Source: Candidatus Magasanikiibacteriota bacterium
GTDB lineage: Bacteria > Patescibacteriota > Patescibacteriia > Magasanikbacterales > UBA922
DNA: 64,000 nucleotides
Assembly: GCA_052034405.1 (NCBI GenBank)
Contig: JBPOIO010000020.1
Span: 9,699-73,698, forward strand
Reading direction: 5' to 3'
The notes beneath the pieces were generated by a model. The model saw nothing but the letters and a program-made list of their open reading frames with translations, did no database searches and was not told where the DNA came from. Shown one piece after another: positions 3,793 through 49,060 of this stretch; positions within the stretch are counted from its first letter, which is position 1, and every line of letters begins with the position of its first letter. Made by a program: the position numbers and the translations under genes.

Positions 3793-3821
3793 TATTGGTA
3801 TTCGGTTTTTTCTTTTTTTTT

Positions 3822-5477
3822 ATGCCAATACCTAGTCTTCGTCCTGACTACGAAAGCTTAGGGAAAGATACGATTTGTGTTTTTGCTCAAACAAACTTCC
3901 GCAATCAATTGCGGCGTTTTGGTATAAAATTAGACGACCGTCGTCGTCACATGTATATTGTTGGAAAAACAGGTATGGGAAAATCAACCATGATGGAAAA
4001 CATGGTTCTTGATGATATTTTTTCTGGCAATGGTATTGGGCTTGTGGATCCACATGGAGATTTCGCAGAAAAAATTCTCAACTATATCCCTGCCAAACGT
4101 ATTAATGATGTTGTGTATATCAACCCATCAGATCTTGATTTTCCAATTGGATTCAATATCTTGGAGGTACAAAACGAAGGACAAAAACATTTGATTGTGG
4201 CAGGTCTCATGGGAATTTTCAAAAAGATTTGGCCAGATGTGTGGAGTGCTCGTATGGAATATATCCTCAATAATACACTTCTTGCACTTATTGAATATCC
4301 AGGATCGACCTTGCTTGGTATCAATCGTTTGCTTTCTGATAAAAAATATCGCAAAAAAGTAGTAGCAAAAGTAAAAGATCCTGTTATCAAAAGTTTTTGG
4401 AATGTTGAGTTTGCAAGTTATACAGAAAAATATGCACAGGAGGCTGTGGCTCCAATTCAAAATAAAATTGGTCAATTTTTGTCTACCAATGTTATCCGAA
4501 ATATGGTTGCGCAGGTAAAATCAACGATTGATATTCGTAAACTCATGGATGAAAAAAAGATTGTCATCATGAATTTGAGTAAGGGGCGTATTGGAGAAGA
4601 TAATAGTCGTTTGCTCGGAGGAATGCTTATTACCAAAATTCAGCTTGCGGCTATGGAACGTGTAGATACTCCAGAGGCAGAACGTAAAGATTTCTTTTTG
4701 TACGTTGATGAATTTCAAAATTTTGCAACTCCATCTTTTGCCAATATTTTGTCAGAAGCCCGAAAGTATCGTTTGAGTTTGATTATGGCGCATCAATATA
4801 TCAAGCAGCTCGACGAGATTGTTGCTGATGCTGTTTTTGGAAATGTTGGTACTATTATTTCATTTCGTATTGGTGGGGGAGATGCCGAGATGCTTGCCAA
4901 AGAATTTACCCCAATATTTCTTGAAGAAGACTTGGTAAATTTGCCAAAATTTCAAATATTTTTGAAACTTATGATTGATGGTGTTTCTTCTACACCATTT
5001 AGTGCTATGACTTTGCCACCGCTTGGAAGTCCGACAGGAAGTCTTGAAAAAGTTATTCGAGTCTCTCGTGAACGTTATGGTCGACCTCGTGAGGCTATTG
5101 AAGATAAAATTATGCGTTGGGCAGGCCTTGAGGGTGATATGGTTGATGAAGACGAAGATGAAGAACCTGAACAAAGTTCTCTTGATTCTTTGGAGAGTTC
5201 TGTAGATTCGAAGCCTGCTGTGGTAGAAAAAATCGTAGAAGCGATTCCACCACAAGAAGTTTTTGTCGAAGAGCCTGTTCTTCATTTGGATTCTTTATTA
5301 CCAGCAGAAACTTCTTTGGATAAAAGTGAAGACCTTGTTCATTTTGATAGTCCTGTGCTTCCATCTTCATCTGCACCTTCTGTTGCAAAAGATTCTTCTT
5401 TGAGTGGAGAAAAAAAGAAACGAAGACGTCGACGTAGAAGAAAAAATTCAGGAGCTGTGAGTACAAGTTCTGTCTAA
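3822..5477 (+). CDS. P-loop ATPase of the TraD/VirD4/HerA (DUF87)-like type, with an acidic then polybasic C-terminal tail
   Basis: Walker A is IVGKTGMGKST and Walker B is FFLYVDEFQNF; a VDPHGDF motif is also present. The C-terminal ~120 aa are low-complexity D/E/S-rich and end in KKKRRRRRRRK. Confidence 0.55.
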   Translation: MPIPSLRPDYESLGKDTICVFAQTNFRNQLRRFGIKLDDRRRHMYIVGKTGMGKSTMMENMVLDDIFSGNGIGLVDPHGDFAEKILNYIPAKRINDVVYINPSDLDFPIGFNILEVQNEGQKHLIVAGLMGIFKKIWPDVWSARMEYILNNTLLALIEYPGSTLLGINRLLSDKKYRKKVVAKVKDPVIKSFWNVEFASYTEKYAQEAVAPIQNKIGQFLSTNVIRNMVAQVKSTIDIRKLMDEKKIVIMNLSKGRIGEDNSRLLGGMLITKIQLAAMERVDTPEAERKDFFLYVDEFQNFATPSFANILSEARKYRLSLIMAHQYIKQLDEIVADAVFGNVGTIISFRIGGGDAEMLAKEFTPIFLEEDLVNLPKFQIFLKLMIDGVSSTPFSAMTLPPLGSPTGSLEKVIRVSRERYGRPREAIEDKIMRWAGLEGDMVDEDEDEEPEQSSLDSLESSVDSKPAVVEKIVEAIPPQEVFVEEPVLHLDSLLPAETSLDKSEDLVHFDSPVLPSSSAPSVAKDSSLSGEKKKRRRRRRRKNSGAVSTSSV

Positions 5478-17346: not shown

Positions 17347-20295
17347 ATGGATACTGTAGAAATAGAAAAACTGCTCGAAGATAATGAGAGGTCTCTGATT
17401 GAGATCTATTTTGATTTGCAGGCGCAATTTGAAGAAAAATATGGGGCTAATACGGTGGTACTGATTGAAGTGGGATCGTTTTTTGAAGTCTATGGAGTAG
17501 AGAGTGATGAAATCAAAATTGGAAAACCAAAAGAAATTGCCGAAATTTTAAACCTTCAACTCACTCGGCGCAATAAACAATTTCCAGAAAATTCCTTGAA
17601 AAATCCATTGCTTGCTGGTTTTCCGGTAGCAACTTTTGATCGCTATATTGCGAGGCTTATTCAAGAACATAAATATACTATTGTTGTAGTGCGCCAGGCA
17701 GGGTTGCCTCCACATATTCGGCGTTATGTAGAACGTATTATTTCTCCTGGTGTGAACTTTGATTATTCATTGGGGCGTGATAATAATTTTATTGCATCTC
17801 TTTTGATCGATGAAATTCATGGGTTGTATTCTGTTGGTTACAGTGCACTTGATGTGACAACTGGAAAAACTTATGTTGAGGAAATTCAGAGTACCAAAGA
17901 AGATTCCAATTTTGCACTTGATGAAGTGTTTCGTTTGCTGCGCAGCTATCCTACAAGTGAAATTTTGTTGACTTTTTTGAGTACTGACATTGACCAGTAC
18001 AAAGTTCGGCAGTATTTGGAAATTTTGGAAAGTGATGTCAAAATAAATACAAAACGTTTGAAAATTTCCTATCAAAATGAACTTTTGAAACGGACCTATA
18101 ATGTTCAATCTTTTTTGTCAGCCATTGAATTTTTGGATTTGGAAAAAAAACCATTGGCATCTGAGTCGCTTGCTGTTTTGGTTGATTTTATTATTGATCA
18201 TGACAGTCAAATTATTCAAAAACTGGAAAAACCAATTATTTTATCAAATGAAAATTATTTGTATTTGGGAAATAATCCACTCGAGCAATTGAATATTATT
18301 GGGACGAATCTCAATGAATTGCATATTGCTTCGGTGATTGATTACACTCTGACGAGTATCGGTGCGCGCCTTCTTCGTGAACGTTTGTCAAATCCAATTA
18401 CAAATTCTACAGAAATTGAACAGCGTTATAATTTGTCAGAAATTTTGGGTGAAGTGCATTTGTCTCTTGATCAAGAACTTCGTCATGTCTATGATTTGGA
18501 GCGTATTATTCGTCGCATTCAACTTGCGCGTTTGCATCCATTTGAAATAAATTTTTTGTATGATTCACTCAAAAGTGCAGATTGTATTGTGCAGTCACTG
18601 CAGAATATAAAAAATCATAGAGTTTTGGAAGAATTTTTTCAAGAAAAAAACAGGCTTCAAGATTGTTTGCGTTCACTTGAAAAAATATTTGATTTTGAAC
18701 AAACGAGTCGAGTTGCACTGCAGGCTATTGATACGACTATTTTTCAAGTTGGATTTCATGCCGAGCTCGATAATTTGATGCGTAGACGTGCGGATCTTGA
18801 AGAAAAGCTCGAGATTATTCGTGGAAAAGTTTTGGAGGTTCTCGAAAGTGAAATAGGAAAAAAAGAAAGAGACTTTGTAGAAATTCGCCAACTGGATAAA
18901 GAAGGACATTATATTACTCTTACAAGAAGTCGTTTTGCCCTTATTGAAGAAAAACTTAAAACAACATTTGTGTCTCTTGATGGCACTGTCTATGCGTTTT
19001 CGGATTTTTCTTTTAAAACACAAACAACAAACGTAAAAATTACTGCTCCTATAATAGATCGTATTTCCGAGGAGATTGTTTTGCTACAAGGAAAAATTGC
19101 TGCGACAACTAGAGAATTGTATATTCAAGAATTGCATAAATTGGAAGAGAACTTTTTGAATTTGTTTATTGCAACTTCTTCTTTTTTGGCCAAAATTGAT
19201 GTGGCTCTGTCAAATATAAAAGCAAGTATCAAATTGAATTTGTGTCGGCCAGAAATTGTAGCATTTGACAGTGAGCCCTTTATGGAAATTTCCGACTTGC
19301 GGCATCTGCTCGTCGAGGCGCGTGAAGAAAATGGTATTTATGTACCAAACGATGTATTTTTGGGAAATAAAAAATATGCGCAAAAGGAATCCATTTTTAC
19401 ACAGATGATACAAGAAAATATTCGTGGTGTGCTCCTCTATGGAATCAATTCGAGTGGAAAATCTTCGTATATGAAGAGTATTGGTGTGGCGGTGATTTTG
19501 GCACAGAGTGGTTTTTTTGTACCAGCCGAGTCTATGCGTTTTTCAATATTTTCTGAAATTTTTACGCGTATTTTGGCGCGAGATAATTTTGAAAAAGGAT
19601 TATCCAGTTTTGCAGTAGAGATGTTGGAACTCAAAAATATTTTCAATCGTTGCAGCAAGAGAAGTTTGATCTTGGGAGATGAAATTAGTCATGGAACAGA
19701 AACACTTTCTGCCTTGGCTATTGTGAGCGCAACCATTGAACATTTGGCACTCAAAGATTGTTTTTTTCTTTTTACTACGCATTTGCACCAACTGTGCAAT
19801 TTGGAGAGAATTCAAAAGATAAAAGAAGTTCGAAGTGTGCATTTGCAAGTGTGCTATGATGCTCAAAAAGATAAACTTATTTTTGAACGTAAACTCCAAG
19901 CTGGAAGTGGAAGTAGTATTTACGGACTTGAATTTGCCGAGTCGCTTCATATTGATAAGGACTTTATGAAGCGTGCGCAAACTATACGAAAAGAGTTGGC
20001 CGAGGATTATCAGGAACTTGAACTCTTAACAAAAAAACAAAAAAGCAAGTATCACAAAGAATTGTATTTGTCTTCCTGCGCTATTTGTAAAAAAATGGTG
20101 GAAGATACGCATCATATTGCGCCCCAAGAGATTGCGGATAGTGATGGCAATATTGGGCACTTTCACAAAAATCACAAATATAATTTGCTGCCACTATGCA
20201 AAGACTGCCATAATCGGGTACACGAAGGGAAGCTGATCATTCGTGGATTTGTTATGACGAGTCATGGTCTTGAAATAGATTTTGACGAAAAATAA
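17347..20295 (+). CDS. MutS-family protein with a C-terminal HNH endonuclease domain (MutS7-like)
   Basis: Domain I-like N-terminus with GSFFEVY (the Phe-x-Glu mismatch motif). ABC ATPase domain V with Walker A INSSGKSSYMKS and Walker B LILGDEISHGTE. C-terminal HNH/zinc motif CAICKK...HHIAPQ...N..LLPLCKDCHNRVH. Confidence 0.8.
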   Translation: MDTVEIEKLLEDNERSLIEIYFDLQAQFEEKYGANTVVLIEVGSFFEVYGVESDEIKIGKPKEIAEILNLQLTRRNKQFPENSLKNPLLAGFPVATFDRYIARLIQEHKYTIVVVRQAGLPPHIRRYVERIISPGVNFDYSLGRDNNFIASLLIDEIHGLYSVGYSALDVTTGKTYVEEIQSTKEDSNFALDEVFRLLRSYPTSEILLTFLSTDIDQYKVRQYLEILESDVKINTKRLKISYQNELLKRTYNVQSFLSAIEFLDLEKKPLASESLAVLVDFIIDHDSQIIQKLEKPIILSNENYLYLGNNPLEQLNIIGTNLNELHIASVIDYTLTSIGARLLRERLSNPITNSTEIEQRYNLSEILGEVHLSLDQELRHVYDLERIIRRIQLARLHPFEINFLYDSLKSADCIVQSLQNIKNHRVLEEFFQEKNRLQDCLRSLEKIFDFEQTSRVALQAIDTTIFQVGFHAELDNLMRRRADLEEKLEIIRGKVLEVLESEIGKKERDFVEIRQLDKEGHYITLTRSRFALIEEKLKTTFVSLDGTVYAFSDFSFKTQTTNVKITAPIIDRISEEIVLLQGKIAATTRELYIQELHKLEENFLNLFIATSSFLAKIDVALSNIKASIKLNLCRPEIVAFDSEPFMEISDLRHLLVEAREENGIYVPNDVFLGNKKYAQKESIFTQMIQENIRGVLLYGINSSGKSSYMKSIGVAVILAQSGFFVPAESMRFSIFSEIFTRILARDNFEKGLSSFAVEMLELKNIFNRCSKRSLILGDEISHGTETLSALAIVSATIEHLALKDCFFLFTTHLHQLCNLERIQKIKEVRSVHLQVCYDAQKDKLIFERKLQAGSGSSIYGLEFAESLHIDKDFMKRAQTIRKELAEDYQELELLTKKQKSKYHKELYLSSCAICKKMVEDTHHIAPQEIADSDGNIGHFHKNHKYNLLPLCKDCHNRVHEGKLIIRGFVMTSHGLEIDFDEK

Positions 20296-20305
20296 GTTGA
20301 AAATA

Positions 20306-20340
20306 AAAAGAACTCTCAAAAATGAGAGTTCTTTTGTGTT
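20306..20340. terminator. Bidirectional rho-independent terminator
   Basis: AAGAACTCTCA-AAAA-TGAGAGTTCTT followed by T-rich sequence. Confidence 0.55.
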
Positions 20341-20344
20341 TAGA

Positions 20345-21080
20345 AACTAAGATCGGGGCGCTGCTTCGTGCGGAAGCCGGGAGGGGCCTGTGGCGGGTGC
20401 TGCTCAGGTGGGGTCGGGCAGGGGAGGCATGAGCATGGCAGGCGGCATCAGGACATTGCCGTCGGGCGCCCCGTAGGAGCGCACGCAGGTGTAGCCTTTG
20501 GCCACGCTGCTGTAGGCGCAGGCGACATAGGCGCCATCGGCTTGTGGGCCTTCGGCCTTAGCCTTCACGGCCTCGAGGGCCTCTTTCTGGGTCGCCCAGT
20601 AGGGCGTGACCTTTCCCGTTACCACGTAGGGGCTGCTGCTGGTTGTGGGCGGGCAGTAGGGCATGTCGCCGTCGAATGGACACATGGCCCGTGCCGTGTT
20701 TGGCCTCAGGCGCTGGCCTTGCTCGCTCAGGCAGCGGACGTATCCGCCAGGTACCGAGCAATGGTACTTTCCAGCTTCCACCTCGACGCGGCCCAAAAAC
20801 AACTTGTCCGGTCCGAAAATGTCACAGGTTTGGGCGTCCTGCGGGGCCTCGAAGCCTGGCCCTTTGAGCTCGCAATCTCCCTTGCCCAGGGGTTGAGCCA
20901 AGGGGATGAACCACTTGGCCTCCTCCGCGCTGGGCATCGTGCTGCCGCAGGCTGACAGGATCAGGGCGGCGAGGAAGACGAGGACGATGGCGATCATGCG
21001 CAGCATGAGATGACTCCTAATCAGCTGAAATTGCGGCATTTGGGCTGCCGCCTGGCCCGGTGCACGAAGCACCGCGATCT
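20345..21080. other. Compositional island of ~65-68% GC in a ~34% GC background, bounded by imperfect inverted repeats
   Basis: Abrupt GC shift at both borders. Left end is GATCGGGGCGCTGCTTCGTGCGGAAGCCGGG. The reverse complement of the right end is GATCGCGGTGCTTCGTGCACCGGGCCAGG, sharing GATCG and a CGNTGCTTCGTGC core. Confidence 0.6.
20404..21006 (-). CDS. Cys-rich secreted lipoprotein encoded in the GC-rich island
   Basis: Signal peptide plus lipobox MLRMIAIVLVFLAALILSAC-GS. AGGAG Shine-Dalgarno 7 nt upstream. Nine cysteines. GC3-rich codon usage unlike neighbouring genes. The ORF-track version is extended N-terminally to 21090. Confidence 0.55.
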   Translation of the reverse strand: MLRMIAIVLVFLAALILSACGSTMPSAEEAKWFIPLAQPLGKGDCELKGPGFEAPQDAQTCDIFGPDKLFLGRVEVEAGKYHCSVPGGYVRCLSEQGQRLRPNTARAMCPFDGDMPYCPPTTSSSPYVVTGKVTPYWATQKEALEAVKAKAEGPQADGAYVACAYSSVAKGYTCVRSYGAPDGNVLMPPAMLMPPLPDPT

Positions 21081-21177
21081 TAATTTCCAATTGGTCAATT
21101 GTAATGTACGGATAGCTGATTATATCAAAAAACTTCTCTTTGTCAAGAGAAGTTTTGTTAAATTTGGCTCTACTGAC

Positions 21178-26033: not shown

Positions 26034-26435
26034 ATGGAGAACTGTATTTTTTGCAAAATTATACGAGGAGAAGTTTCGAGTTACACTGTGTATCAAGACG
26101 ATCATTGCTTGGCATTTCTCGATATTCATCCTGTGACAAAGGGGCATGTTGTTGTAATTCCAAAAGTGCATGCCGAAACGCTTCTTGATTTGAATGACGA
26201 GAGTATAAAAGAATTTTTTGTGGGAGTAAAAAGAGCTCAGGAGCGAATAAAGATTATTCTTTTTCCAGATGGATTCAATGTTGGTTGGAATCATGGAGAT
26301 GCTGGTGGTCAGGCCGTGAAACATTTGCATGTGCATATACTTCCTCGATGGAATGGGGATGCAGGAGGCAGTATGCATTCGATTGTGAAAAAAGAAAGTG
26401 ATCTCTCTGTTGAGGACTTGGCAAAATTATTTTGA
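26034..26435 (+). CDS. HIT-family (histidine triad) nucleotide hydrolase
   Basis: HLHVHILPR histidine triad and an N-terminal CIFCKI motif. Confidence 0.8.
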   Translation: MENCIFCKIIRGEVSSYTVYQDDHCLAFLDIHPVTKGHVVVIPKVHAETLLDLNDESIKEFFVGVKRAQERIKIILFPDGFNVGWNHGDAGGQAVKHLHVHILPRWNGDAGGSMHSIVKKESDLSVEDLAKLF

Positions 26436-26446
26436 AAGAAAATTGT

Positions 26447-27451
26447 ATGAAAGTATTAGTAACTGGTGGCGCAGGTTTTATCGCCTCAAATTTTATCCGT
26501 TATTGGCTTACCACACATCCCGAGGATTTTGTGGTCAATTTTGATACCTTGACCTATGCGGGGAATTTGGAAAATTTGAAAGATTGTGAAACAAATCCAA
26601 AATATAGTTTTATCAAGGGTGATATTTGTGATCGCGAAGTTGTATTTGATGCGGTAAAAAATGTTGATACGGTGGTACACTTTGCTGCAGAAACACATGT
26701 GGATAGATCTATTTTGGATCCAGGTATTTTTGTGCGCAGCAATATTATGGGGACACAGACAGTGCTTGATGCTGTAAAAGAATACGGGAAAAGATTTCAT
26801 CATATTTCTACAGATGAAGTTTTTGGTGCTTTAACTCCAAATGATCCACCTTTCAATGAAAAAACTCCTTATGATCCAAAAAGTCCCTATGCTGCATCAA
26901 AAGCAGCATCTGATCATTTGGTAAGGGCCTACATTCATACTTTTGGAATTCAAGCGACAATTTCCAATTGTTCCAACAACTACGGCCCCTATATGTTTCC
27001 AGAAAAGATGATGCCACTATTTATTGCGAACTTGATGGAAGATAAAAAAGTCCCAGTATATGGTGATGGTATGCAAGTACGCGATTGGATTTTTGTAAGC
27101 GATCACGCAAGGGGAGTTGACGCTATTTTGCAGCATGGTAAAATTGGTGAAACCTATTGTCTTGGTGGAAATAGTGAAGTTCCAAATATTGTAATTGTAA
27201 AAAAGCTATTGGAGCTACTCGGAAAAGATGAATCGTATATTGAATATATCAAAGATCGTCCAGGACATGATCGCAGATACGCTATTGATTTTCGTAAAGC
27301 CAAAAGTGAACTGAATTGGGAACCTATCGTAAAACTAGATGATGGTTTGAAAATAATGGTGAATTGGTATAAGGATAATCAAAAATGGGTAGAGGATTGT
27401 CGTAGTGGTGCCTATCAAGAATATTATGATACTTGGTATAATAAAAGATAA
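26447..27451 (+). CDS. rfbB: dTDP-glucose 4,6-dehydratase
   Basis: MKVLVTGGAGFIASNF Rossmann fold; YAASKAASDH catalytic YxxxK. An upstream in-frame TTG at 26432 overlaps the HIT stop. Confidence 0.85.
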   Translation: MKVLVTGGAGFIASNFIRYWLTTHPEDFVVNFDTLTYAGNLENLKDCETNPKYSFIKGDICDREVVFDAVKNVDTVVHFAAETHVDRSILDPGIFVRSNIMGTQTVLDAVKEYGKRFHHISTDEVFGALTPNDPPFNEKTPYDPKSPYAASKAASDHLVRAYIHTFGIQATISNCSNNYGPYMFPEKMMPLFIANLMEDKKVPVYGDGMQVRDWIFVSDHARGVDAILQHGKIGETYCLGGNSEVPNIVIVKKLLELLGKDESYIEYIKDRPGHDRRYAIDFRKAKSELNWEPIVKLDDGLKIMVNWYKDNQKWVEDCRSGAYQEYYDTWYNKR

Positions 27452-27460
27452 TTTATTTTT

Positions 27461-28333
27461 ATGAAAATACTTATTATTGGTGGGGGATATGTGGGAGAAC
27501 GCTGTGCTGCTGCATGGTCAGATGCTGTTCTTTCGACAAGTCGAGTGACGTCAAAAGAAGATGTTTTAAAGTTACTCGATGAACACAAACCCGATGCAGT
27601 GCTCAATGCTGCTGGAGTTCGTGGTAAACCAAATGTAGACTGGTGCGAAACGCATCAAATGGAAACCATTGTTGGTAATACCAAACTTCCTATTACTATT
27701 GCCGAGGCTTGCCAAGAAAAAGGCATCTACCTTTTGCATATTGGGTCTGGTTGTATTTTTTATGGAGATTCACCTCATGAAGACAAAAAATGGCGTGAAA
27801 GCGATTTGGGAAATCCAAGTGAAGTGACCTATTCTCGTACAAAATGGGCGGCAGATTTGGTATTATCTACACTTCCAAATACCGGCATTGCGCGTATTCG
27901 TATGCCAATTGACTATATTCCTTCTCCACAAAACATGATTGACAAACTTGCAACCTATCCAAAGGTTATTGATGTAGAAAATAGTGTGACGATTGTTGAC
28001 GATATGGTTGCAGTATTTCGTGCGCTTATGGAAAAAAAGGCGCCTGGGATTTTTCATGTGACAAATCCGGGGACTCTCAAACATCGAGAAATTGTTGCTT
28101 TGTATGAAGAAATGGTAGATCCAAATCACAAAAATGAATGGATTAGCAATGAGGCTCTTGTACAGCAGGGTCTTGCCACAAAAGGACGTTCCAATAATTT
28201 TCTTGCTTCAGAAAATCTTGCAAAATTTGGTATTGAAATGCGCGAAGTGCATGTTGCTATGCGAGATACTATGGAAAAATATACAAAAATGAAATTGGAA
28301 GGTAAAAAAAGTGATGAAATTTTATCTTGTTAA
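27461..28333 (+). CDS. NAD(P)-dependent sugar nucleotide reductase, RmlD-like (dTDP-4-dehydrorhamnose reductase family)
   Basis: MKILIIGGGYVG, VLNAAGVRGKPNVDWCETHQ, and position next to rfbB. Confidence 0.5.
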   Translation: MKILIIGGGYVGERCAAAWSDAVLSTSRVTSKEDVLKLLDEHKPDAVLNAAGVRGKPNVDWCETHQMETIVGNTKLPITIAEACQEKGIYLLHIGSGCIFYGDSPHEDKKWRESDLGNPSEVTYSRTKWAADLVLSTLPNTGIARIRMPIDYIPSPQNMIDKLATYPKVIDVENSVTIVDDMVAVFRALMEKKAPGIFHVTNPGTLKHREIVALYEEMVDPNHKNEWISNEALVQQGLATKGRSNNFLASENLAKFGIEMREVHVAMRDTMEKYTKMKLEGKKSDEILSC

Positions 28334-28336
28334 TAT

Positions 28337-29113
28337 ATGATAGTCTTGTGCTCTACCGTACATAGTCCAGAAGCTGGACTCAAGTGGTTATCAGATATTC
28401 ACCTTGAAACACTCAAAGATATTTTTGATGATATTATTGTGGTTGCAAGTCCTTTGACAGACAAAAAATACTTGCAAGAACTCAAAAACTCTGGGATTGC
28501 TGTAGAACAAAGAAAAAATAATAATATTGCAAAAACATATTATCGTGCTATTGAACTTGGATCCAAAACAAATGCAGATTATATTTTTTATTGTGATTTT
28601 GATCGTATTTTACACTGGGTGCATACCTATAAAAAAGAACTGCAAACTTTTGTGAAAACTTTACAAAAAGAATCTTTGAAAAAAAAATCAGTTCTTGAAT
28701 ATATTATTTGTGAACGAACAAAAGAAGGCTATGCTAAACATCACGAAGCATTATTTGAAACCGAACAAATTGCGAGTCGGGTGATAAATCACTTTTTGGA
28801 AGAAAAAAAATCGCATGATTATTTTGGTGGTTCTTTTATTTTTTCTGCAAAGGCCTTTAAAATAATTTTGGCAAAAGGAAAAAACGTAAATGGTCAGGAA
28901 CATTGGGGCTATTGGCCTGTGCTTTTGAAAAAAAATAAAATAAAGGTAAGTTATAAAATGTGCAAGGGACTTGAGTGGGAAACCCCGGATCAGTATAGAA
29001 AAGCAGTGGAAGCTGCAGGTGGACTAGAAAAATGGCGAGAGCAGCTCTCTTCCAAAGAAGAATGGAAGCGCCGTACTCTTTGGGCCAGGGAATTTGTTGG
29101 AAAGTTGCTATAA
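28337..29113 (+). CDS. Hypothetical protein in the sugar cluster
   Basis: 258-aa ORF with no recognisable motif, followed by a terminator hairpin at 29126-29158. Confidence 0.4.
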   Translation: MIVLCSTVHSPEAGLKWLSDIHLETLKDIFDDIIVVASPLTDKKYLQELKNSGIAVEQRKNNNIAKTYYRAIELGSKTNADYIFYCDFDRILHWVHTYKKELQTFVKTLQKESLKKKSVLEYIICERTKEGYAKHHEALFETEQIASRVINHFLEEKKSHDYFGGSFIFSAKAFKIILAKGKNVNGQEHWGYWPVLLKKNKIKVSYKMCKGLEWETPDQYRKAVEAAGGLEKWREQLSSKEEWKRRTLWAREFVGKLL

Positions 29114-29173
29114 ATTTTGCTTGAGAAGGGCAGCCTCAGTGAGGGGCTGCTTTTTTGTATTTGGGTTTTAGTC

Positions 29174-29203
29174 TTGACAAAAACAGCTATTTTATGCTAT
29201 ATT
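29174..29203 (+). promoter_or_regulatory. Sigma70-like promoter TTGACA-18-TATATT
   Basis: AT-rich native-looking promoter immediately 5' of the GC-rich leader of the 29290 gene. Confidence 0.45.
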
Positions 29204-29289
29204 TACTTACTTTGCCTCATCCGAGGCCGAGGAGGTTTGCCCCCACCGAGTGGAAGAGGGGTTTACAAAGACAGGAAGGAGCTTCCATA

Positions 29290-29907
29290 ATGGAGCCCAA
29301 GCCCCAGAGCTGGCAGGAGTGGCTGGTGTTCCGCCAAGCTGCTTCGATGATGACTGTGGCTCGCATCCCGCTCACGGAGGTCCGTGGGTGGGGGATGCAG
29401 CAGGCGGGTGACTTCGCTCGTCCCGATGGGAAATTTTGGGCTCTCAAGGGAGTCCAGGTTTCTCTCGCGGGGCGAGAGGTATCGACCTGGGACCAGCCCC
29501 TCATCGAGGAGTATGGTCAGGGGGTCGTGGTGCTGGTCATTGACCCGACGCAGGATCGCTTCCTGCTTCGGGCAAAGGCCGAGCCCGGCAACGCGGCACT
29601 GGGTTGTGTGGCGCTTGCGCCCACGATTCAGTGCAGTCAGTCGAACCTCACCCAGGTCCACGGCGGCAAGCGGCCGCCGCGGGTCGAGCTCCTCGATGGG
29701 AAGGAGATCGACTGGATCCGCATCCTCCAGGATGGGGGGAAGTTCTACTGCAAGTTGAACATCTATCACATCCTCTACCTTTCCCACGAAGAGGTGGGCG
29801 TGCTCAGCGTGGATGAACGTTGGTTCACGCGCCGGGAGATCCAAGAGGCCTTTCTCGCGGGGGTGGTGAACAGCCACCTCGCCGAGGTCCTTGGCCTGCT
29901 CATCTGA
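29290..29907 (+). CDS. NDP-hexose 2,3-dehydratase-like single-domain protein (GC-rich foreign gene)
   Basis: GC ~62%. AGGAAGGAG Shine-Dalgarno. Motifs REVSTWDQPL, KAEPGN, PTIQCSQSN..HGG resemble the EvaA/TylX3 2,3-dehydratase fold, which acts on dTDP-4-keto-6-deoxyglucose. The ORF-track start at 29155 is upstream and unlikely. Confidence 0.45.
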   Translation: MEPKPQSWQEWLVFRQAASMMTVARIPLTEVRGWGMQQAGDFARPDGKFWALKGVQVSLAGREVSTWDQPLIEEYGQGVVVLVIDPTQDRFLLRAKAEPGNAALGCVALAPTIQCSQSNLTQVHGGKRPPRVELLDGKEIDWIRILQDGGKFYCKLNIYHILYLSHEEVGVLSVDERWFTRREIQEAFLAGVVNSHLAEVLGLLI

Positions 29908-30119
29908 GCAGCCTAGGACGGCTCTCGAAATAGCGCAGTTCTATGCGTGCCCCTGACAATTTTGTCGGGGAAGAGGGCTTCAAGATAGCCCTAGAGAGGC
30001 CCGGAGTGATCCTTGGGAGGGAATCACAAGAATTCGGGCATGCAAAAAGCAGCTTTGTACAAAGGCTGTTTTTTTATTGCTTTTTTTTTGCTTTTTCGCT
30101 ATGATAGCTTCATATTTCT

Positions 30120-31001
30120 ATGAATGAAAACCCAAAAGTACAATTGACGCTTATTACGGTGACCTGGAGTTCTGCTGCTCTTATTGAAGAACAGATTCTT
30201 TCTGTACAAAAAGCCTGCAAAAATATTCGCTATGAGCAGATCATTGTGGACAATGCTTCTCCAGACAATACGGTGGCACTTATCCGAGAAAAGCATCCAG
30301 AAGTTACTCTTATTGCCAATAGCGAAAACAAAGGTTTTGCTGCTGCCAATAACCAGGGGCTTGCTGTAGCAGAGGGTGAATTTTTGCTTTTTCTCAATCC
30401 GGACATGCGCTTGATGCCGGAGAGTCTTGATCTCATGTATGCTTGGATGAAAGAACATGTGGATGTGGGTATTGCAAGTGTGAAACTTGTTGATGAAAAA
30501 GGGGACTTGAATCAAGATGCCTTACCAAGACGTTTTCCTCGTCTTTATGAACAACTCGCATTGCTTCTCAAGTTACCACATGTTTTTCCACAAATATTAA
30601 ATGGATATTTGCTCAAAGGTTTTGATGCCAATGTGGAGCAAGAAGTTGATACGGTTCGTGGATCTTTTATGTGTATGCGTCCCGAGATGCTGAGCAAACT
30701 TGGCTGGGCCTTTGATCCTCGATATTATATTTGGTACGAAGATGTAGATATTTGCCGCGAAGCCAAACGACTTGGATACAAAGTGATGCACACACCTATT
30801 ATTTCTGCTGTTGATTATATTGGTCAGAGTTTCAAAAAACGTGATACCCTGTGGAAGCAAAAAAACTTTACAAAAAGTATGCTGACCTATTACAAAAAGT
30901 GGGAACCTTGCTATAAATGGATTTGGATTGCTGTATTTCGGCATTTTGGAATATTTCTCGCTTGGCTTGCTGATTTTGTTCACAAAAAATTGAAGAAATA
31001 A
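30120..31001 (+). CDS. Family 2 glycosyltransferase
   Basis: GT-A fold: VDNASPDNT...ENKGFAAANNQG...NPDMRL (DxD-like). Confidence 0.8.
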   Translation: MNENPKVQLTLITVTWSSAALIEEQILSVQKACKNIRYEQIIVDNASPDNTVALIREKHPEVTLIANSENKGFAAANNQGLAVAEGEFLLFLNPDMRLMPESLDLMYAWMKEHVDVGIASVKLVDEKGDLNQDALPRRFPRLYEQLALLLKLPHVFPQILNGYLLKGFDANVEQEVDTVRGSFMCMRPEMLSKLGWAFDPRYYIWYEDVDICREAKRLGYKVMHTPIISAVDYIGQSFKKRDTLWKQKNFTKSMLTYYKKWEPCYKWIWIAVFRHFGIFLAWLADFVHKKLKK

Positions 31002-31006
31002 AAAAT

Positions 31007-32056
31007 ATGTTGAAATTGACGGTTCATTTGGTTACTTGGAATGGGGCAAAATACGTACCCTATCTTTTTGAATCTTTGAAAAAACAAAGTTTCAAAGATT
31101 GGAAACTCTTGATTTGGGACAATGCCTCGAGTGATGGAATGGTCGAAGCCATGAAAAAAGAATTGCTCGATTTTCCAGTACCTTATGAAGTGATTGAAAA
31201 TACAGAAAACATTGGTTTTGCAGGAGGTCATAATGTTTTGTTTCAAAAAACTGATGCAGAGTATTTTGTATGTCTGAATCAAGATATGTACCTTGAAAGT
31301 GATACTCTTTTGAAACTGGTACAATTTTTGGATGCACATTCTGATGTAGCGGTTGTTTCTCCACGACTCATGAAATGGAATTTTTCACTTCTTTTGGATG
31401 AAAAAAACGCGCATGATGCGGTTTATAGTGATGAAGTGGATAGCTTGGGGCTCAAAGTTTTTCGATCTCGCAGAGTGATAGAACAGTACGGACAGGAAAA
31501 GTGGCAAGATCTCAAAAAAATATTTCCTTCTCATTTTTTGGAGGTGTTTGGTGTTTCGGGGGCCTTTCCTTTGTTTCGTCGCTCAAGTATTTCACAAATC
31601 ACTTTTAAAGATAATAGTTTTTTTGATGCTTCGTATCATTCTTATAAAGAAGATGTGGATTTGGCATATCGTTTGCGTTCAGCTGGCTTCAAGGCCTTTG
31701 TGCATCTTGATGCCGTGGTCTATCACGATCGTTCAGCTGCTGGTCCAAAAGAAGAATCAGACGTCGCAGCACTTCAAAATAAAAAAACTCAATCGAGTTG
31801 GGTGAAATATCATAGCTATAAAAATCATTTGATGACTTTGTATAAAAATGAATATTGGCAAAATTTTATTCTTGATTTTCCATATATTGTATGGTATGAA
31901 TTCAAGAAGTTTGTATACTTTCTTTTGAGGGAAAGAAAAATTCTTGGGGGACTTCAAGAAATATATACTATGCGTCGTGAGTTGAAACAAAAGAAAAATT
32001 TGATTTCTTCAAAAAGAAAAATATCAGCAAAAGAAATAAGAATTTGGTGGATATGA
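31007..32056 (+). CDS. Family 2 glycosyltransferase
   Basis: WDNASSDG...ENIGFAGGHN...NQDMYL. Confidence 0.8.
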   Translation: MLKLTVHLVTWNGAKYVPYLFESLKKQSFKDWKLLIWDNASSDGMVEAMKKELLDFPVPYEVIENTENIGFAGGHNVLFQKTDAEYFVCLNQDMYLESDTLLKLVQFLDAHSDVAVVSPRLMKWNFSLLLDEKNAHDAVYSDEVDSLGLKVFRSRRVIEQYGQEKWQDLKKIFPSHFLEVFGVSGAFPLFRRSSISQITFKDNSFFDASYHSYKEDVDLAYRLRSAGFKAFVHLDAVVYHDRSAAGPKEESDVAALQNKKTQSSWVKYHSYKNHLMTLYKNEYWQNFILDFPYIVWYEFKKFVYFLLRERKILGGLQEIYTMRRELKQKKNLISSKRKISAKEIRIWWI

Positions 32057-32898
32057 AAGATATAAATATTGTATTTGTAAATTATCTCTGCAAAGACGAC
32101 ATCATGCAAGCTGTGGATTCTGTGCTTTGTGATATCCAAAATTGTCCCTATAGTGTGCAAATAACAGTGGTGGATAATTCAGAAAACAAAGATAGTATAA
32201 AGGAGTCTCTCACTGAAAAATTTCTACAGGTGGTATATGTTGACGCTGGTGGAAATGTAGGATTTGGAAAAGGAAATACCCTTGGGTTTAAAGCGGGTCA
32301 AGCGAAGTATTATTTTGCATTAAACCGTGATACGGTGATTCAAGAAAATTCGCATACCATTGAACGGCTTATTCAGTTTATGGAGGCTCATCCAAAAATT
32401 GGTTGTATTGGTCCAAAGTTATTAAATATGGATCAAACCTTGCAATATTCTTGTTATCGTTTTGATTTGCCTTCTATTCTTATCAAACCTTTGAAACAAA
32501 TGAATTTTGATAAAAAATATAAGTGGGTGAAACAAAGAACAGATCATCTGTTGATGGCGGATTTTGATCACAATTCGGATAGACCAGTAGATTGGGTCCT
32601 GGGTGCTGCTATGATGGTTCGAGGTGTTGTAGCCGAGCAGTTGGGTTGGTTTGACGAAAGATATTTTATGTATCTAGAAGATGCTGATTGGTGTCATAGA
32701 ATGTGGGAAGCGGGTTGGCCAGTTTATTATGTCCATGATATAGTAATACTGCATCGCTATGCGCGTGATTCGGCAAAAGTTCCTGGAATTTTCAAGGCTT
32801 TATTTAAAAATAAACTTGCACGGATTCATCTGGTAAGTTGGATAAAGTATCTGTGGAAATGGCGCCATCAAAATCGTTATTATAAAACTATTTCTTAA
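32053..32898 (+). CDS. Family 2 glycosyltransferase
   Basis: VVDNSENKD...GGNVGFGKGN...NRDTVI. ATG at 32053 overlaps the upstream stop (ATGA). Confidence 0.75.
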   Translation: MKDINIVFVNYLCKDDIMQAVDSVLCDIQNCPYSVQITVVDNSENKDSIKESLTEKFLQVVYVDAGGNVGFGKGNTLGFKAGQAKYYFALNRDTVIQENSHTIERLIQFMEAHPKIGCIGPKLLNMDQTLQYSCYRFDLPSILIKPLKQMNFDKKYKWVKQRTDHLLMADFDHNSDRPVDWVLGAAMMVRGVVAEQLGWFDERYFMYLEDADWCHRMWEAGWPVYYVHDIVILHRYARDSAKVPGIFKALFKNKLARIHLVSWIKYLWKWRHQNRYYKTIS

Positions 32899-32906
32899 TT
32901 TGAGCT

Positions 32907-34007
32907 ATGGAACACTACCCTAAAATAGCTATCGTATATCTGTCATTTCATTGTGAGCCATATATGGATGATATTTTGTCATCCCTCAAAAAATTGACCT
33001 ATCCAAAAGATAAAGTGGAATTTATTATTGTAGATAACCCACATCCACAGCATGGACCTTCTGTAGCCTATATTCAGGATACTGTAATGCCACTTTCTGG
33101 AAAAGAAATTCCTCATGTAACACTGCTCCCTCAAAAAACAAATTTGGGTTTTGCTGGAGGAAATAATGCGGGTGTTGATTGGGCTTTGAAAGAAGGTTTT
33201 GATTATGTTTATTTTCATAACAATGATGGTTTCATGGCTGCGAACTGTCTTGAACCTATTGTTGAAGTCATGGAAAAAGATAAAAGTATTGGAGCAGCAC
33301 AGTCTTTGATGCTCTTACATCCAGAAACAGATCTTATTAACAGTACTGGAAATTCTTTTCAATATTTAGGATTTGGTTTTTGTAATCAATACCGATTTAA
33401 AATAAAAGATGTTGTGCTTCCTCCTGTGAAAGAAATCGCCTATGCCAGTGGTGCTGCTCTTATGGTTTCTGTTGAAAACATTCGAAAATACGGTTCTTGG
33501 GATAATGACTTTTTTCTGTATCACGAAGATTTGGAGTGGAGCATGCGTCTTCGTATGGCTGGGTACAAGGTAGTACTCGTGAGTGATTCGGTGTTTTATC
33601 ACAAATATCAATTTGCAAGAAGTATTACAAAATTTTATTGGATGGAACGCAATCGCTATGGTACCATGCTCATGTTTTTTCGTTGGCCAACGCTTCTTTT
33701 GCTTGCTCCAATGGGGTTGGCGCTTGAATTTGGTCTGATTCTTTTTGCCATCAAGGGTGGTTGGTTTCAAGAACGAATGAAAGTATATAAATATTGGTTA
33801 AAATTGGAAAATTGGAAATTGTGGCTTGGTAAACGTAAAAAAACACAGGCATTACGTACTGTGAGTGATCGTCACTTGATGAATTATGCTGTTTCTGGTA
33901 TATATTTTCAGGATAAATCAACGGATAATCCAATTGTCAATTATATTGGAAATCCTATTATGAAAATATATTATTGGATTGTCGTAAAAGGACTGATTTG
34001 GTGGTAA
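32907..34007 (+). CDS. Family 2 glycosyltransferase with a C-terminal membrane segment
   Basis: IVDNPHP...TNLGFAGGNNAG...HNNDGFM. Confidence 0.8.
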   Translation: MEHYPKIAIVYLSFHCEPYMDDILSSLKKLTYPKDKVEFIIVDNPHPQHGPSVAYIQDTVMPLSGKEIPHVTLLPQKTNLGFAGGNNAGVDWALKEGFDYVYFHNNDGFMAANCLEPIVEVMEKDKSIGAAQSLMLLHPETDLINSTGNSFQYLGFGFCNQYRFKIKDVVLPPVKEIAYASGAALMVSVENIRKYGSWDNDFFLYHEDLEWSMRLRMAGYKVVLVSDSVFYHKYQFARSITKFYWMERNRYGTMLMFFRWPTLLLLAPMGLALEFGLILFAIKGGWFQERMKVYKYWLKLENWKLWLGKRKKTQALRTVSDRHLMNYAVSGIYFQDKSTDNPIVNYIGNPIMKIYYWIVVKGLIWW

Positions 34008-34019
34008 TACATTTATACT

Positions 34020-35111
34020 ATGAAAATACGAAAAGCAATTTTGACAGGTGGTGGACGTGCAACTCGTCTTCAACCAATTACAACAACCATCAACAAACAT
34101 CTTTTGCCTTTGGCAAATAAGCCAATGATTTTTCATGCTATTGATAAAGCGGTAGAAGCAGGGATTAAAGAAATTTTCATCAATGTAAATCCAGGCGATA
34201 CTGATCTTCAAAAGTATATTGGTGATGGTGGGCACTGGGGTATAAAAATACATTTTTTTGAACAAACGGGTGGTCCACAAGGTATTGCTCATGTAGTGAA
34301 CGAAGCAAAACAATTTATTGGGAGTGATCCCTTTATGTTCTATCTTTCAGATAATATTCTTCTTGGAAAGTTGAGTCAGCTCTTTGATGAATTTGAACAA
34401 GGGGATTATCACTGTATGCTGGCACTTTCAGAAGTAGCGGATCCAGAGCGTTTTGGTGTTCCTGTATTTAATGAAGCAAAAGAGTTGATAGATGTATTAG
34501 AAAAACCTTCAAAAGCTCCAAATAATTTTGCTGTAACGGGAATTTATCTTTATGGACCGAATGTGTTTTTTGATGCTTTTGATAACATTGAAAAAAGTGC
34601 TCGTGGAGAATATGAAATTTCAGATATTCACTCGTATTTTTTGAAACAAGGTTTGCGTGTAGGGTATAAAGAAATTACTGGTTGGTGGAAAGATACTGGA
34701 AAATCCGAAGATTTACTCTTGGCCAATAAACTTCTTCTCGATAATATGGAAATAAAAGAATTTCCAAACCATGGAACTGTGGCAGAAGGGGCAAAAATTT
34801 CTGGAAATGTACATGTAGGTATTGGTTCACAAATAAAAAGTACAACGACCATTCGTGGTCCTGTCATTATCGGTGAAAATTGTATATTAGAAAATTGTAT
34901 TATTGGGCCACATGTGACTGTTGGTCCTGGAACCGAAATTAGTGATGCCAGTATTGAAAATTCAATTATTCTTGATAACGCAACAATAAAAGTTCCGATG
35001 ATTATCACCGATAGTCTTATTGGAAAAAAAGTACAACTCATAAAACGAAAAGACGATACTATCCAAGGTCATAAAATGATTATTGGAGATAAAACTTTTT
35101 TTGAAATGTAA
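34020..35111 (+). CDS. Sugar-1-phosphate nucleotidyltransferase, long form (RmlA-like with a C-terminal left-handed beta-helix)
   Basis: AILTGGGRATRLQPITTTINKHLLPLANKPMI N-terminal NTP-transferase motif. Hexapeptide repeats in the C-terminal 110 aa. Confidence 0.7.
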   Translation: MKIRKAILTGGGRATRLQPITTTINKHLLPLANKPMIFHAIDKAVEAGIKEIFINVNPGDTDLQKYIGDGGHWGIKIHFFEQTGGPQGIAHVVNEAKQFIGSDPFMFYLSDNILLGKLSQLFDEFEQGDYHCMLALSEVADPERFGVPVFNEAKELIDVLEKPSKAPNNFAVTGIYLYGPNVFFDAFDNIEKSARGEYEISDIHSYFLKQGLRVGYKEITGWWKDTGKSEDLLLANKLLLDNMEIKEFPNHGTVAEGAKISGNVHVGIGSQIKSTTTIRGPVIIGENCILENCIIGPHVTVGPGTEISDASIENSIILDNATIKVPMIITDSLIGKKVQLIKRKDDTIQGHKMIIGDKTFFEM

Positions 35112-47998: not shown

Positions 47999-49060
47999 AT
48001 GAATACCGATGAAGTCGTTATAAAAGAGTCTTTAATTGATGGAAAAGGTATTTTTGCGTCCCGAAACTTTAAACAAGGAGAAGTGATTTTGCATTGGGAT
48101 ACTACTCAAGTTATAGATAAAAGTGAGTTAAAAAAACTTGATGAAGAAGAAAAAAAGTATATAACGCTCGTAAATGGTCAGTATACCAAAATGCAAGAAC
48201 CTGAAAAATTTGTAAATCACTCCTATAATCCCGATACTTACGTAAAAAATTTTTGTGATGTAGCTCTTCGAGATATTTCAGAAGGGGAGGAGATCACAAG
48301 TGACTATACTGATAGCTTACCTCCAAATACGGTGATACCGTGTAATTGTGGAAGTAAGCGTTGTAGAAAAGTTATTACCAATATGAAATTCTTATTACAA
48401 CAAAGTGATTTTGCCGCTATTCCATCACAAACTGAACGATTAGATGAACGGCACCAGACGAGCGAGCCAATGGAGATCGTCTGTTGTGGCCTGCCAATTC
48501 AAGTACTTAGTGGTGTATATAAAACTTCCGCAGATACGGAACTTATGGCAGACACAGTCAAAATTGAGCTTCACCAGACCTTTTTGGAAATAGGTTGTGG
48601 CACGGGTATAGTGTGTATCTCTTTGGCAAAAAAAGCTAAATCAGGAGTTGGAGTAGATATCAATAAACTTGCGGTTGAAAATAGTAAATTAAATTTTGCT
48701 CGACATAGTAGCATAAATAATGTTGAATTTTTGGAATCAAATCTTTTTGAAAATGTACAAGGACAATTTGACGTCATTATATGTAATCCACCATATAACA
48801 ACAATAATGCCAAAGATAATATAGATAAAATGTTTTGGGATGCAAAAGATGACATGAAACAACGTTTTTTCAAAGAAGTAGGGAACTATTTAAAAGAAAA
48901 TGGACGAATATATTTTGGTTGGGCCAACTTTGCAGATTTAGATCTCTATTTGCCATTTCGTTTAGCAGAAGAAAATGGATTTGAAGTGGTAGATGTTCAA
49001 AGTCGTCCTTCGAAGAGTAAAAATTGTTTATTTTATGTTTTTGAGTTTAGAAGAAAGTAA
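47999..49060 (+). CDS. SET domain fused to an NPPY-type class I methyltransferase (PrmC/HemK-like)
   Basis: N-terminal GKGIFA...NHSYNPDT...EEITSDY plus post-SET CNCGSKRCR. C-terminal LEIGCGTGI (motif I) and ICNPPY (motif IV). Confidence 0.7.
   Translation: MNTDEVVIKESLIDGKGIFASRNFKQGEVILHWDTTQVIDKSELKKLDEEEKKYITLVNGQYTKMQEPEKFVNHSYNPDTYVKNFCDVALRDISEGEEITSDYTDSLPPNTVIPCNCGSKRCRKVITNMKFLLQQSDFAAIPSQTERLDERHQTSEPMEIVCCGLPIQVLSGVYKTSADTELMADTVKIELHQTFLEIGCGTGIVCISLAKKAKSGVGVDINKLAVENSKLNFARHSSINNVEFLESNLFENVQGQFDVIICNPPYNNNNAKDNIDKMFWDAKDDMKQRFFKEVGNYLKENGRIYFGWANFADLDLYLPFRLAEENGFEVVDVQSRPSKSKNCLFYVFEFRRK

Follow-up and report, generated by a model that had tools for sequence, protein, structure and literature searches.

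A GC-rich single-gene island lies at positions 29205-30040 of a 64,000-nucleotide stretch (the window) of contig JBPOIO010000020.1, assigned to a Candidatus Magasanikiibacteriota bacterium. Its open reading frame (ORF) encodes a 205-aa protein which belongs, with near certainty, to the NDP-hexose 2,3-dehydratase family by both sequence and fold. The protein is a one-domain variant of a known enzyme kind, and it lacks the two-domain architecture and the usual partners of characterised 2,3-dehydratases. What makes the gene notable is a GC anomaly that extends over its whole subfamily, is stable at one genomic site, is carried by mosaic alleles and has no visible donor, together with a hyper-structured transcript. 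Our best combined explanation of family, function and exchange describes a dehydratase-family gene of a surface-glycan locus that would be overwritten again and again by GC-rich alleles. We hold this combined explanation with about even confidence.

A GC-rich transcription unit at a conserved site

A first-pass annotation, made from the sequence alone, had described a GC-rich island with an AT-rich promoter and a GC-rich leader and body. This description is correct. Bases 29205-30040 are 60.8% GC, against 37.0% for the remainder of the window minus both of its islands. In a 300-nt sliding profile, the GC fraction steps from 0.30-0.39 to 0.61-0.65 (~29200 to 30040) and then to 0.40, with sharp edges. 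The ORF itself is 62.8% GC. Its GC fractions at the first, second and third codon positions (GC1, GC2 and GC3) are 0.68, 0.41 and 0.80, and GC3 in eight neighbouring genes is 0.26-0.35 (about 0.28). Among the long ORFs of the 64 kb only two exceed a GC3 of 0.6, the present one and that of a first island (20404-21090, minus strand). Amino-acid composition was rejected as the cause of the GC-richness, GC2 being only 0.41 against a GC3 of 0.80.

The GC-rich stretch has the extent of a transcript (leader, ORF and trailer), with a promoter and a terminator bracketing it. The island is one transcription unit, composed of a promoter, a hairpin leader, a 205-codon ORF, a multi-hairpin trailer and a terminator. 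The elements are, from left to right:

29128-29156, plus strand: terminator-like hairpin and T-run of the upstream 258-aa gene, read from the sequence as GCAGCCTCagtgaGGGGCTGC then TTTTTTGT; left edge of the native AT-rich context
29174-29203, plus strand: sigma-70-type promoter, TTGACA-18 nt-TATATT, with an extended -10 TG; 11 of 12 matches
29205-29289, plus strand: GC-rich 5' leader; ribosome-binding site GGAAGGAG and, in a consensus fold of five sequences, two hairpins (GCCUC..GAGGC and CCCCC..GGGG)
29290-29907, plus strand: coding sequence of the single-domain NDP-hexose 2,3-dehydratase-family protein, 205 aa; PF03559, Nudix-like fold
29908-30043, plus strand: GC-rich 3' untranslated region with four successive hairpins, read from the sequence
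30044-30074, plus strand: intrinsic terminator of the island transcript, a 13-pair stem then a T-run, conserved in relatives

The start codon is the ATG at 29290 (not 29291), with the ribosome-binding site directly ahead. The hairpin at 29128-29156 is identical across five aligned relatives; a pattern scan for terminators did not list it. The promoter is invariant in L009-L012 (L numbers denote the loci fetched for comparison), and equivalents are found ahead of the gene in L095, L014 and L103. The first 59 nt of the leader are 100% identical among the window and L010-L013, where synonymous sites of the adjacent genes differ by 21-40%. L095 has a recognisably homologous leader: it shares with the window a CCUC..GAGG hairpin, a CCCCCACC...GGGG motif and an AAGGAG site, and three pairs of the consensus fold are compensated in it. 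At the 3' end, the GCCCGGA..UCCGGGC hairpin and the terminator are retained in L095 too.

As the first-pass annotation had stated, no terminal inverted repeats were found at the island borders. The only long inverted pair (29131-29155 with 30044-30068, 72% complementary) corresponds to the two flanking terminators. The borders carry no mobility genes and no tRNA, the nearest tRNA being 14 kb off. Leader and trailer have no further copies in the window or in the fetched loci other than orthologues. A mobile cassette with terminal repeats was therefore rejected. An assembly chimera or contamination was also rejected: at least six independent assemblies (L009-L013, L094) show identical junctions and the same flanks. 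On the minus strand, a 204-aa ORF (29263-29877) has its codons in register with those of the sense frame, and it needs no more than that the sense gene avoids TTA, CTA and TCA. This ORF is broken in L009, a close relative, as well as in L098, L106, L174 and L175, and we consider it a compositional artefact rather than an antisense gene. Finally, a non-coding RNA in place of a gene is ruled out by the Pfam match, by a ratio of nonsynonymous to synonymous rates (dN/dS) below 0.3 and by the Rfam search. Above gathering score, Rfam models detected only three tRNAs in the window, and none matched at E <= 1 within 29100-30150.

The gene is not a private recent import. L009-L013 and L094 carry it at the corresponding site, and the arrangement RfbB-NRS/ER-HexDeh-GT2a-d(-RmlA), where HexDeh is the island gene, persists in L014, L103/L015 and L095 and partly in L001. 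Between the window and L095, L103 or L014, 4-fold degenerate sites of the flanks differ at a fraction of 0.59-0.78, which corresponds to saturation. GC3 of HexDeh is nevertheless 0.65-0.83 in all four lineages. Per-site rates in the flanks, summed over terminal branches, are 0.30 for changes from G or C to A or T (S to W) and 0.11 for the reverse changes (W to S), giving an equilibrium GC3 of 0.27. A single acquisition followed by passive decay does not fit, because an inherited GC3 excess should vanish at such distances.

The GC anomaly is a property of the whole subfamily, not of this genome. We define the subfamily as proteins of about 205 aa that are at least 40% identical to the query. 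Its genomic contexts are of the candidate phyla radiation (CPR) type, including Magasanikbacteria (L015, L016), Uhrbacteria (L001, L073) and many low-GC contigs. GC fractions are as follows (locus, gene, flanks):

window, gene 0.63, flanks 0.37
L009, gene 0.64, flanks 0.41
L010, gene 0.66, flanks 0.39
L011, gene 0.65, flanks 0.39
L095, gene 0.63, flanks 0.42
L014, gene 0.61, flanks 0.39
L103, gene 0.59, flanks 0.40
L175, gene 0.62, flanks 0.39
L174, gene 0.67, flanks 0.46
L106, gene 0.62, flanks 0.45
L105, gene 0.64, flanks 0.51
L001, gene 0.61, flanks 0.49
L005, gene 0.57, flanks 0.455
L073, gene 0.58, flanks 0.44
L098, gene 0.63, flanks 0.54
L096, gene 0.49, flanks 0.35
L097, gene 0.51, flanks 0.40
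L176, gene 0.45, flanks 0.36
L177, gene 0.51, flanks 0.46
L100, gene 0.39, flanks 0.33
L101, gene 0.40, flanks 0.34
L102, gene 0.39, flanks 0.39

The subfamily gene has the top GC3 of all ORFs in 12 of the 17 loci with enough neighbours (median excess +0.19). For the other one-domain PF03559 type, described below, this is the case in 4 of 25 loci (median excess +0.02). L098, the carrier richest in GC, is no exception: with a GC3 of 0.79, the gene there lies above all its neighbours (median of the other ORFs 0.65). In L100 and L101 (GC3 0.28-0.30) and in L102 (0.22) the gene is largely or fully ameliorated.

The first island of the window (20340-21125, minus strand) encodes a lipoprotein-like orphan (MLRMIAIVLVFLAALILSAC...) with a GC3 of 0.78, behind a perfect TTGACA-N17-TATAAT promoter. 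Its ends carry 20-nt inverted repeats (AAGATCG.GG..TGCTTCGTGC), and only 4 homologues of the orphan were found among 5.8 billion proteins. In the relative L178, this island occupies the same site by MutS, with a GC of 0.62 against 0.38; it is 75% identical where the flanks are 90% identical, and its C-terminus differs. In this it behaves like the second island.

Mosaic alleles, loss of GC and a structured transcript

The gene is a clear recombination mosaic. When L010 is compared with L011, identity is 98% in alignment columns 1-60, 52-62% in columns 61-240, 95% in columns 241-360, 75-78% in columns 361-480 and 97-100% in columns 481-639. For the divergent L011 tract, the nearest sequences, P0020 and P0010, come from outside the clade. 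The window allele is also aberrant at its 3' end, being 72-73% identical where the other three alleles are 92-97% identical. At the protein level, HexDeh evolves much faster than the genes beside it: it is 71-88% identical among close relatives, with flanks at about 95%, and 42-52% identical in the deeper syntenic relatives, with flanks at 61-88%. The HexDeh of L001 is 48% identical though its flanks are only 35-48% identical, and is thus closer than the flanks predict. L005, which is not syntenic, reaches 51%, on a par with the 52% of L095, the nearest of the syntenic relatives, and the neighbour-joining tree of HexDeh is star-like. With a dN/dS of 0.17-0.30, against 0.03-0.10 for the flanks at similar dS (0.36-0.57 and 0.25-0.72, respectively), the gene is functional and under purifying selection.

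Third-position singletons in the four lineages of the clade show that the gene is off compositional equilibrium and is losing GC now. They comprise 34 S to W changes and 7 W to S changes (binomial p 3e-5), whereas the flanks show 58 and 54 (gene versus flanks, Fisher p 4e-4). The flank rates would predict 49 S to W changes in the gene, so that the 34 seen amount to a loss at about 70% of the expected speed (P 0.016).

The first-pass annotation implied a recent transfer. A single, fairly recent transfer from a high-GC donor, for instance an actinomycete antibiotic-sugar cluster, would account for a foreign composition that is not yet ameliorated and for the GC being lost at present, and two-domain relatives are indeed typical of Streptomyces. 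However, the actinomycete enzymes have two domains and are 30-34% identical to the island protein. Its nearest relatives outside the clade reach no more than 55% identity, and every one of them comes from a low-GC context of CPR type. The same promoter, leader and terminator are present in relatives at 86-91% nucleotide identity (flanks about 92-95%), and also in deeper syntenic ones. Comparison of synteny showed similarly GC-high homologues in related low-GC genomes at the same position. Of the marks of a private island, only the atypical composition is observed: the gene is not absent from close relatives, its borders bear no mobility signatures, and no donor is identifiable. Because the gene is a recombination mosaic and GC-rich copies occupy the same site in relatives, a single recent transfer cannot explain it, and we regard this scenario as very improbable. 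A phage or plasmid reservoir was also rejected: there are no viral relatives, and plasmids hold only distant Streptomyces two-domain enzymes.

We propose instead that the gene would be a long-standing yet exchangeable component of the surface-glycan locus. Homologous recombination with divergent alleles, every one of them GC-rich, would repeatedly overwrite its coding sequence, either entirely or tract by tract. Such recombination would be anchored in the invariant promoter, leader and terminators, and between overwriting events an allele would decay toward AT. Because it combines the saturation at the syntenic site, the signs of exchange and the present loss of GC, recurrent replacement with decay in between is the most economical account; as to these dynamics, our confidence is evenly balanced. 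Loci for surface polysaccharides (O-antigen or capsule) are similar in having a glycan gene of deviant GC, mosaic alleles between close relatives and conserved anchoring flanks. The ongoing drift toward host composition recalls the classical amelioration of transferred genes, reportedly described by Lawrence and Ochman in 1997 (cited in PMC12455944). In contrast to both precedents, a single gene with its untranslated regions is concerned here, and the deviation is toward high GC in many unrelated low-GC hosts. It concerns, moreover, one orthologous site beyond synonymous saturation, and no source genome of matching composition was found.

The transcript has an unusual fold. The whole transcript folds at -426.7 kcal/mol, compared with -358.4 +/- 10.6 for dinucleotide shuffles (z -6.5). 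For the coding sequence alone, the values are as follows:

window coding sequence: z -6.3 to -7.7 with dinucleotide shuffles, z -7.5 with synonymous-codon shuffles
L011 coding sequence: z -5.8 with dinucleotide shuffles, z -6.2 with synonymous-codon shuffles
L175 coding sequence: z -4.2 with dinucleotide shuffles, z -3.9 with synonymous-codon shuffles

As controls, neighbouring genes have z values of -1.6 to +0.3, and the equally GC-rich gene of the first island has a z value of -0.4. All 150-nt segments in 29250-30100 are negative (z -1.1 to -5.5), with flanks around 0. The strongest local folds are those of segments that overlap the trailer (z -5.5 for 29850-29999, -4.3 for 29900-30049 and -3.5 for 29950-30099). 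The four clade alleles give an RNAalifold consensus of 205 pairs, in which 94.9% of cells are paired. Both partners have changed in 15 of these pairs, compared with 5.2 +/- 1.8 in shuffles and 2-4 for slid partners, the structure being derived from the same four sequences. The hyper-structured transcript is a real feature in the clade of the window. Because the sense strand folds better than the antisense strand (z -7.65 versus -5.93) and the consensus pairs show many G-U and G-C-to-G-U variants, the signal points to structure in the RNA and not in the DNA. Hairpins at the 5' end, a structured body and four hairpins at the 3' end would suit an mRNA made to be stable. Other GC-rich homologues have ordinary folds (L095, L014, L103, L001, L174 and L105, z +1.3 to -1.6), and RNA structure was rejected as a general cause of the GC-richness. 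Separately, a 150-nt segment inside the first GT2 gene (30450-30599) has a z value of -3.4, with neighbouring segments near 0.

Alternatively, the GC-richness, and with it the dense mRNA structure of the clade, may be actively held, so that the gene would resist amelioration rather than be re-imported. The force could be selection on the transcript, favouring stability or slowed translation of an enzyme whose product is reactive, or else a gene-specific GC-biased conversion at a recombination hotspot. The subfamily would then be GC-rich in dozens of unrelated low-GC genomes through a gene-specific force and not as a left-over of transfer. We regard this as a minority possibility. It draws on the persistence of the orthologous site across lineages with saturated synonymous sites, on the ultra-conserved leader and on the S to W rate somewhat below that of the flanks. 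It also draws on a set of observations that weigh against repeated replacement. A pure import-and-decay process predicts that source genomes should have been sampled, and their absence favours an intrinsic force. The gene is in excess of GC in nearly every carrier, and no high-GC host at compositional parity with its subfamily gene was seen in ~25 sampled contexts. No relative above 55% identity was found outside the clade of the window among 5.8 billion proteins and 1.84 billion cluster representatives. There were no relatives on viral contigs, and plasmid matches were below 34% identity. Lastly, the z value of the coding sequence under synonymous shuffling and the excess of compensated pairs hint at selection on the nucleic acid. 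These pairs, however, were counted on the same four sequences that gave the consensus structure, and the structure signal is not seen in most of the GC-rich homologues. The 34:7 imbalance toward AT means a composition off equilibrium, the ameliorated copies of L100, L101 and L102 show that high GC is not required for function, and the island has sharp edges where biased conversion would be expected to leave gradients.

The protein family and the surface-glycan locus

The motifs quoted by the first-pass annotation for the 205-aa ORF are all present (GREVSTWDQPL, RAKAEPGN and APTIQCSQSNLTQVHGG), and its proposal of one half of an EvaA/TylX3-type 2,3-dehydratase agrees with our searches. The single Pfam match is Hexose_dehydrat (PF03559), with an E-value of 1.2e-33 and 116.7 bits (gathering score 25), over profile positions 5-196 of 203. 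Comparison with PDB sequences gave EvaA as the only real match, with 52 bits for the N-terminal half and 54 bits for the C-terminal half; the same query region aligns to EvaA residues 39-227 and to residues 265-409. The tandem PF03559 architecture is not seen, the 205-aa protein having one domain. An AlphaFold2 model built from 21 homologues has a pLDDT of 92.3. Its best Foldseek matches are EvaA 4j7h and 4j7g (E 9e-11, TM 0.77 over the query). They are followed by Nudix hydrolases of NDP-sugars and ADP-ribose, at E-values of about 1e-5 (1.5e-5 for the GDP-mannose hydrolase 3o61).

In EvaA, pocket A is active, with E139 and E190 essential, and pocket B is an inactive relic of gene duplication (PMC8987622). 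The query segment A-K-A-E98-P-G-N aligns with A-K-M-E139-P-G-N of EvaA, and E98, P99 and G100 are invariant across 25 homologues. The inactive half of EvaA carries V-D-G where the active half has EPGN. EvaA E190 sits in a 2-residue insertion relative to the query in the phmmer alignment. The acidic query residue D148 (L-Q-D-G-G-K-F) is 1-2 positions away and is invariant within the subfamily (QDGG). By sequence, the protein appears to correspond to the active half of two-domain EvaA. With EvaA of Amycolatopsis orientalis (4J7G/4J7H) and with TylX3, OleV, Gra27 and SpnO, it shares PF03559, the Nudix-like fold, the EPGN segment with the catalytic Glu and a genomic linkage to dTDP-glucose 4,6-dehydratase. 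Those enzymes, however, have two tandem domains over about 450-500 aa with only the first pocket active, and they are only 23-34% identical to the island protein. They are encoded in antibiotic clusters, whereas the island gene, known from sequence, sits in a CPR cell-surface glycan locus with no 3-ketoreductase or aminotransferase nearby.

The first-pass annotation considered a single-domain protein of this kind unusual. In fact, one-domain PF03559 proteins of 200-260 aa occur at hundreds of loci across bacteria and archaea. A pattern scan with one genome per species gave 191 confirmed loci, and a metagenome pattern scan gave at least 489. An exhaustive HMMER search of 1.84 billion cluster representatives gave 1108 matches at E <= 1e-3 and 63 at E <= 1e-30; among the best 150 representatives, roughly 45 are one-domain proteins (about 200-250 aa). 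The one-domain type of Alphaproteobacteria, Acidimicrobiia, Thaumarchaeota, SAR11 and others (about 230-260 aa) shares the motifs W..Q, AKAEPGN, Q..SN...H.G and [DE]GG[RK]F with the island protein, and these proteins are annotated as 'NDP-hexose 2,3-dehydratase family protein'. They differ from it in being 30-39% identical, in having about 30 additional N-terminal residues and in their C-terminus. The GC of their genes equals host GC in these and other groups (median GC3 difference from the genome +0.02), whereas the 205-aa CPR subfamily is GC-enriched almost everywhere. In L095 (832-945), translation from the upstream ATG, should it occur, would add 38 residues rich in Cys (CSKCSGKG...CSC) to the N-terminus of the dehydratase. 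Our literature search returned nothing characterising one-domain 2,3-dehydratases and nothing on GC-rich single-gene islands in CPR bacteria. The one-domain homologues look like the pre-duplication, presumably homodimeric form of EvaA; they are widespread, and uncharacterised in the literature searched.

The nearest named relatives of the RpoA encoded in the window are all Candidatus Magasanikbacteria. The cluster order around the island is HIT, RfbB, a short-chain dehydrogenase/reductase (SDR), a 258-aa ORF, the island, four GT2 genes, long-form RmlA and ComEC. The genes relevant to sugar metabolism, together with the 258-aa ORF, are:

26432-27451, plus strand: rfbB, dTDP-glucose 4,6-dehydratase, presumed substrate supplier; Pfam GDP_Man_Dehyd/Epimerase, E 2e-80
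27461-28333, plus strand: NRS/ER-type bifunctional 3,5-epimerase/4-reductase (the SDR); PDB 4qqr E 2e-48, 7jid E 2e-30; Pfam RmlD_sub_bind
28337-29113, plus strand: ORF of no known family, 258 aa, between NRS/ER and the island; in the window's own clade only
30120-34007, plus strand: four consecutive GT2 glycosyltransferase genes, presumed users of activated sugars; Pfam Glycos_transf_2
34020-35111, plus strand: rmlA (long form), glucose-1-phosphate thymidylyltransferase; NCBIfam TIGR01208 rmlA_long, 351 bits (cut-off 320)

The rfb, GT2 and rmlA context given by the first-pass annotation is thus correct. Its 'rmlD-like' gene is of NRS/ER type, and the intervening 258-aa ORF had not been mentioned. 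The entry 4qqr is the Arabidopsis NRS/ER 3,5-epimerase/4-reductase and 7jid is the mimivirus UDP-L-rhamnose synthase. There is no RmlC in the cluster. Because the SDR is of NRS/ER type, the locus is predicted from its genes to make L-rhamnose without RmlC, by a route in the style of plants and giant viruses. The 258-aa ORF has no significant match in Pfam, NCBIfam or PDB. L010 and L012 have it as well, with a dN/dS of 0.04-0.07 that indicates strong purifying selection, and L014, L095 and L103 lack it. The GT2 quartet is syntenic in L001, L014 and L103. In L014 (6789-7339), the dehydratase gene is directly followed by another single-gene cassette, GC-rich (56-64%) and with a promoter of its own, which encodes a 183-aa product without a Pfam family. 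The slot between the NRS/ER and GT2 genes seems to collect GC-rich cassettes.

The first-pass annotation named the RfbB product as substrate, a sensible proposal with rfbB 1.8 kb upstream of the dehydratase gene. We find rfbB adjoining or near HexDeh in 12 lineages (the window, L001, L014, L052, L073, L096, L097, L101, L175 and L176, and the partial contigs L095 and L103), and this proximity is also seen in non-syntenic contexts. In L175 (84-4430), the genes are RfbB, an FdtA-type 3,4-ketoisomerase, an RmlD-like protein, HexDeh and a bacterial PGI/SIS protein; there the dehydratase gene reaches 62% GC in a contig of 39% GC, and the fold of its coding sequence is likewise unusual (z about -4). 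RmlA and RfbB next door would supply dTDP-4-keto-6-deoxy-D-glucose to the island protein, which as a homodimer would recreate the two-lobed EvaA subunit. Flux would be diverted in part from the L-rhamnose branch, that of the NRS/ER-type enzyme, to a C-2-deoxygenated sugar for the four downstream GT2 enzymes. The link to this substrate probably holds, judging from the family assignment and the recurrent adjacency of rfbB, non-syntenic contexts included. For the putative substrate and homodimer taken together, we see the chances as about equal either way.

Two points count against this proposed function. The unstable 3,4-diketo product of a 2,3-dehydratase is normally captured by a 3-ketoreductase or a 3-aminotransferase. 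Neither a GFO/IDH/MocA 3-ketoreductase nor a DegT-type aminotransferase was found among the cluster genes and the other ORFs of at least 250 aa in the 64 kb, and the only reductase nearby is the NRS/ER-type SDR. The 2,6-dideoxysugar synthesis hinted at by the first-pass annotation is therefore an incomplete pathway as far as the annotated ORFs of the window go. In addition, we know of no one-domain PF03559 member that has been assayed.

One may ask whether the protein is a Nudix-fold NDP-sugar hydrolase or a dTDP-sugar-binding regulator, which would trim or sense the pool of dTDP-4-keto-6-deoxyglucose or rhamnose. The structural neighbours that follow EvaA and the missing downstream enzymes would agree with such a role, and the second pocket of EvaA shows that the fold is able to bind dTDP-sugars without catalysis (PMC8987622). 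Nudix hydrolases such as E. coli YffH/NudK and ADP-ribose pyrophosphatase are also of similar size, have nucleotide-sugar ligands and form homodimers of the Nudix fold. However, the likeness is at the level of the fold, with about 10-15% identity and another catalytic motif. The Nudix profile PF00293 gave no match to the 205-aa protein at E <= 1, against the strong PF03559 score. The catalytic Glu is kept, within the EPGN that characterises the active half; the VDG of the inactive half is not found there. A hydrolase or regulator is thus unlikely, and we retain the dehydratase assignment.

Three other genes of the window deserve mention. A 982-aa MutS (17347-20295) has domains I, II, III and V and a C-terminal HNH endonuclease/DUF968 module. 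A TrwB/VirD4-like coupling-protein ATPase (3765-5477) adjoins the cell-division genes FtsW and MurG. A SET-domain/methyltransferase fusion protein is encoded at 47999-49060.

The CPR cell surface is where episymbionts meet their hosts and phages, and the locus points to a 2-deoxygenated or otherwise modified sugar there. If the high GC is actively held, the gene would be a clear natural case of resistance to amelioration, in a surface-decorating locus of episymbiotic bacteria. As a GC-rich, mosaic, fast-evolving gene without a donor, it offers a test case for separating repeated transfer, biased conversion and selection on composition in streamlined genomes.

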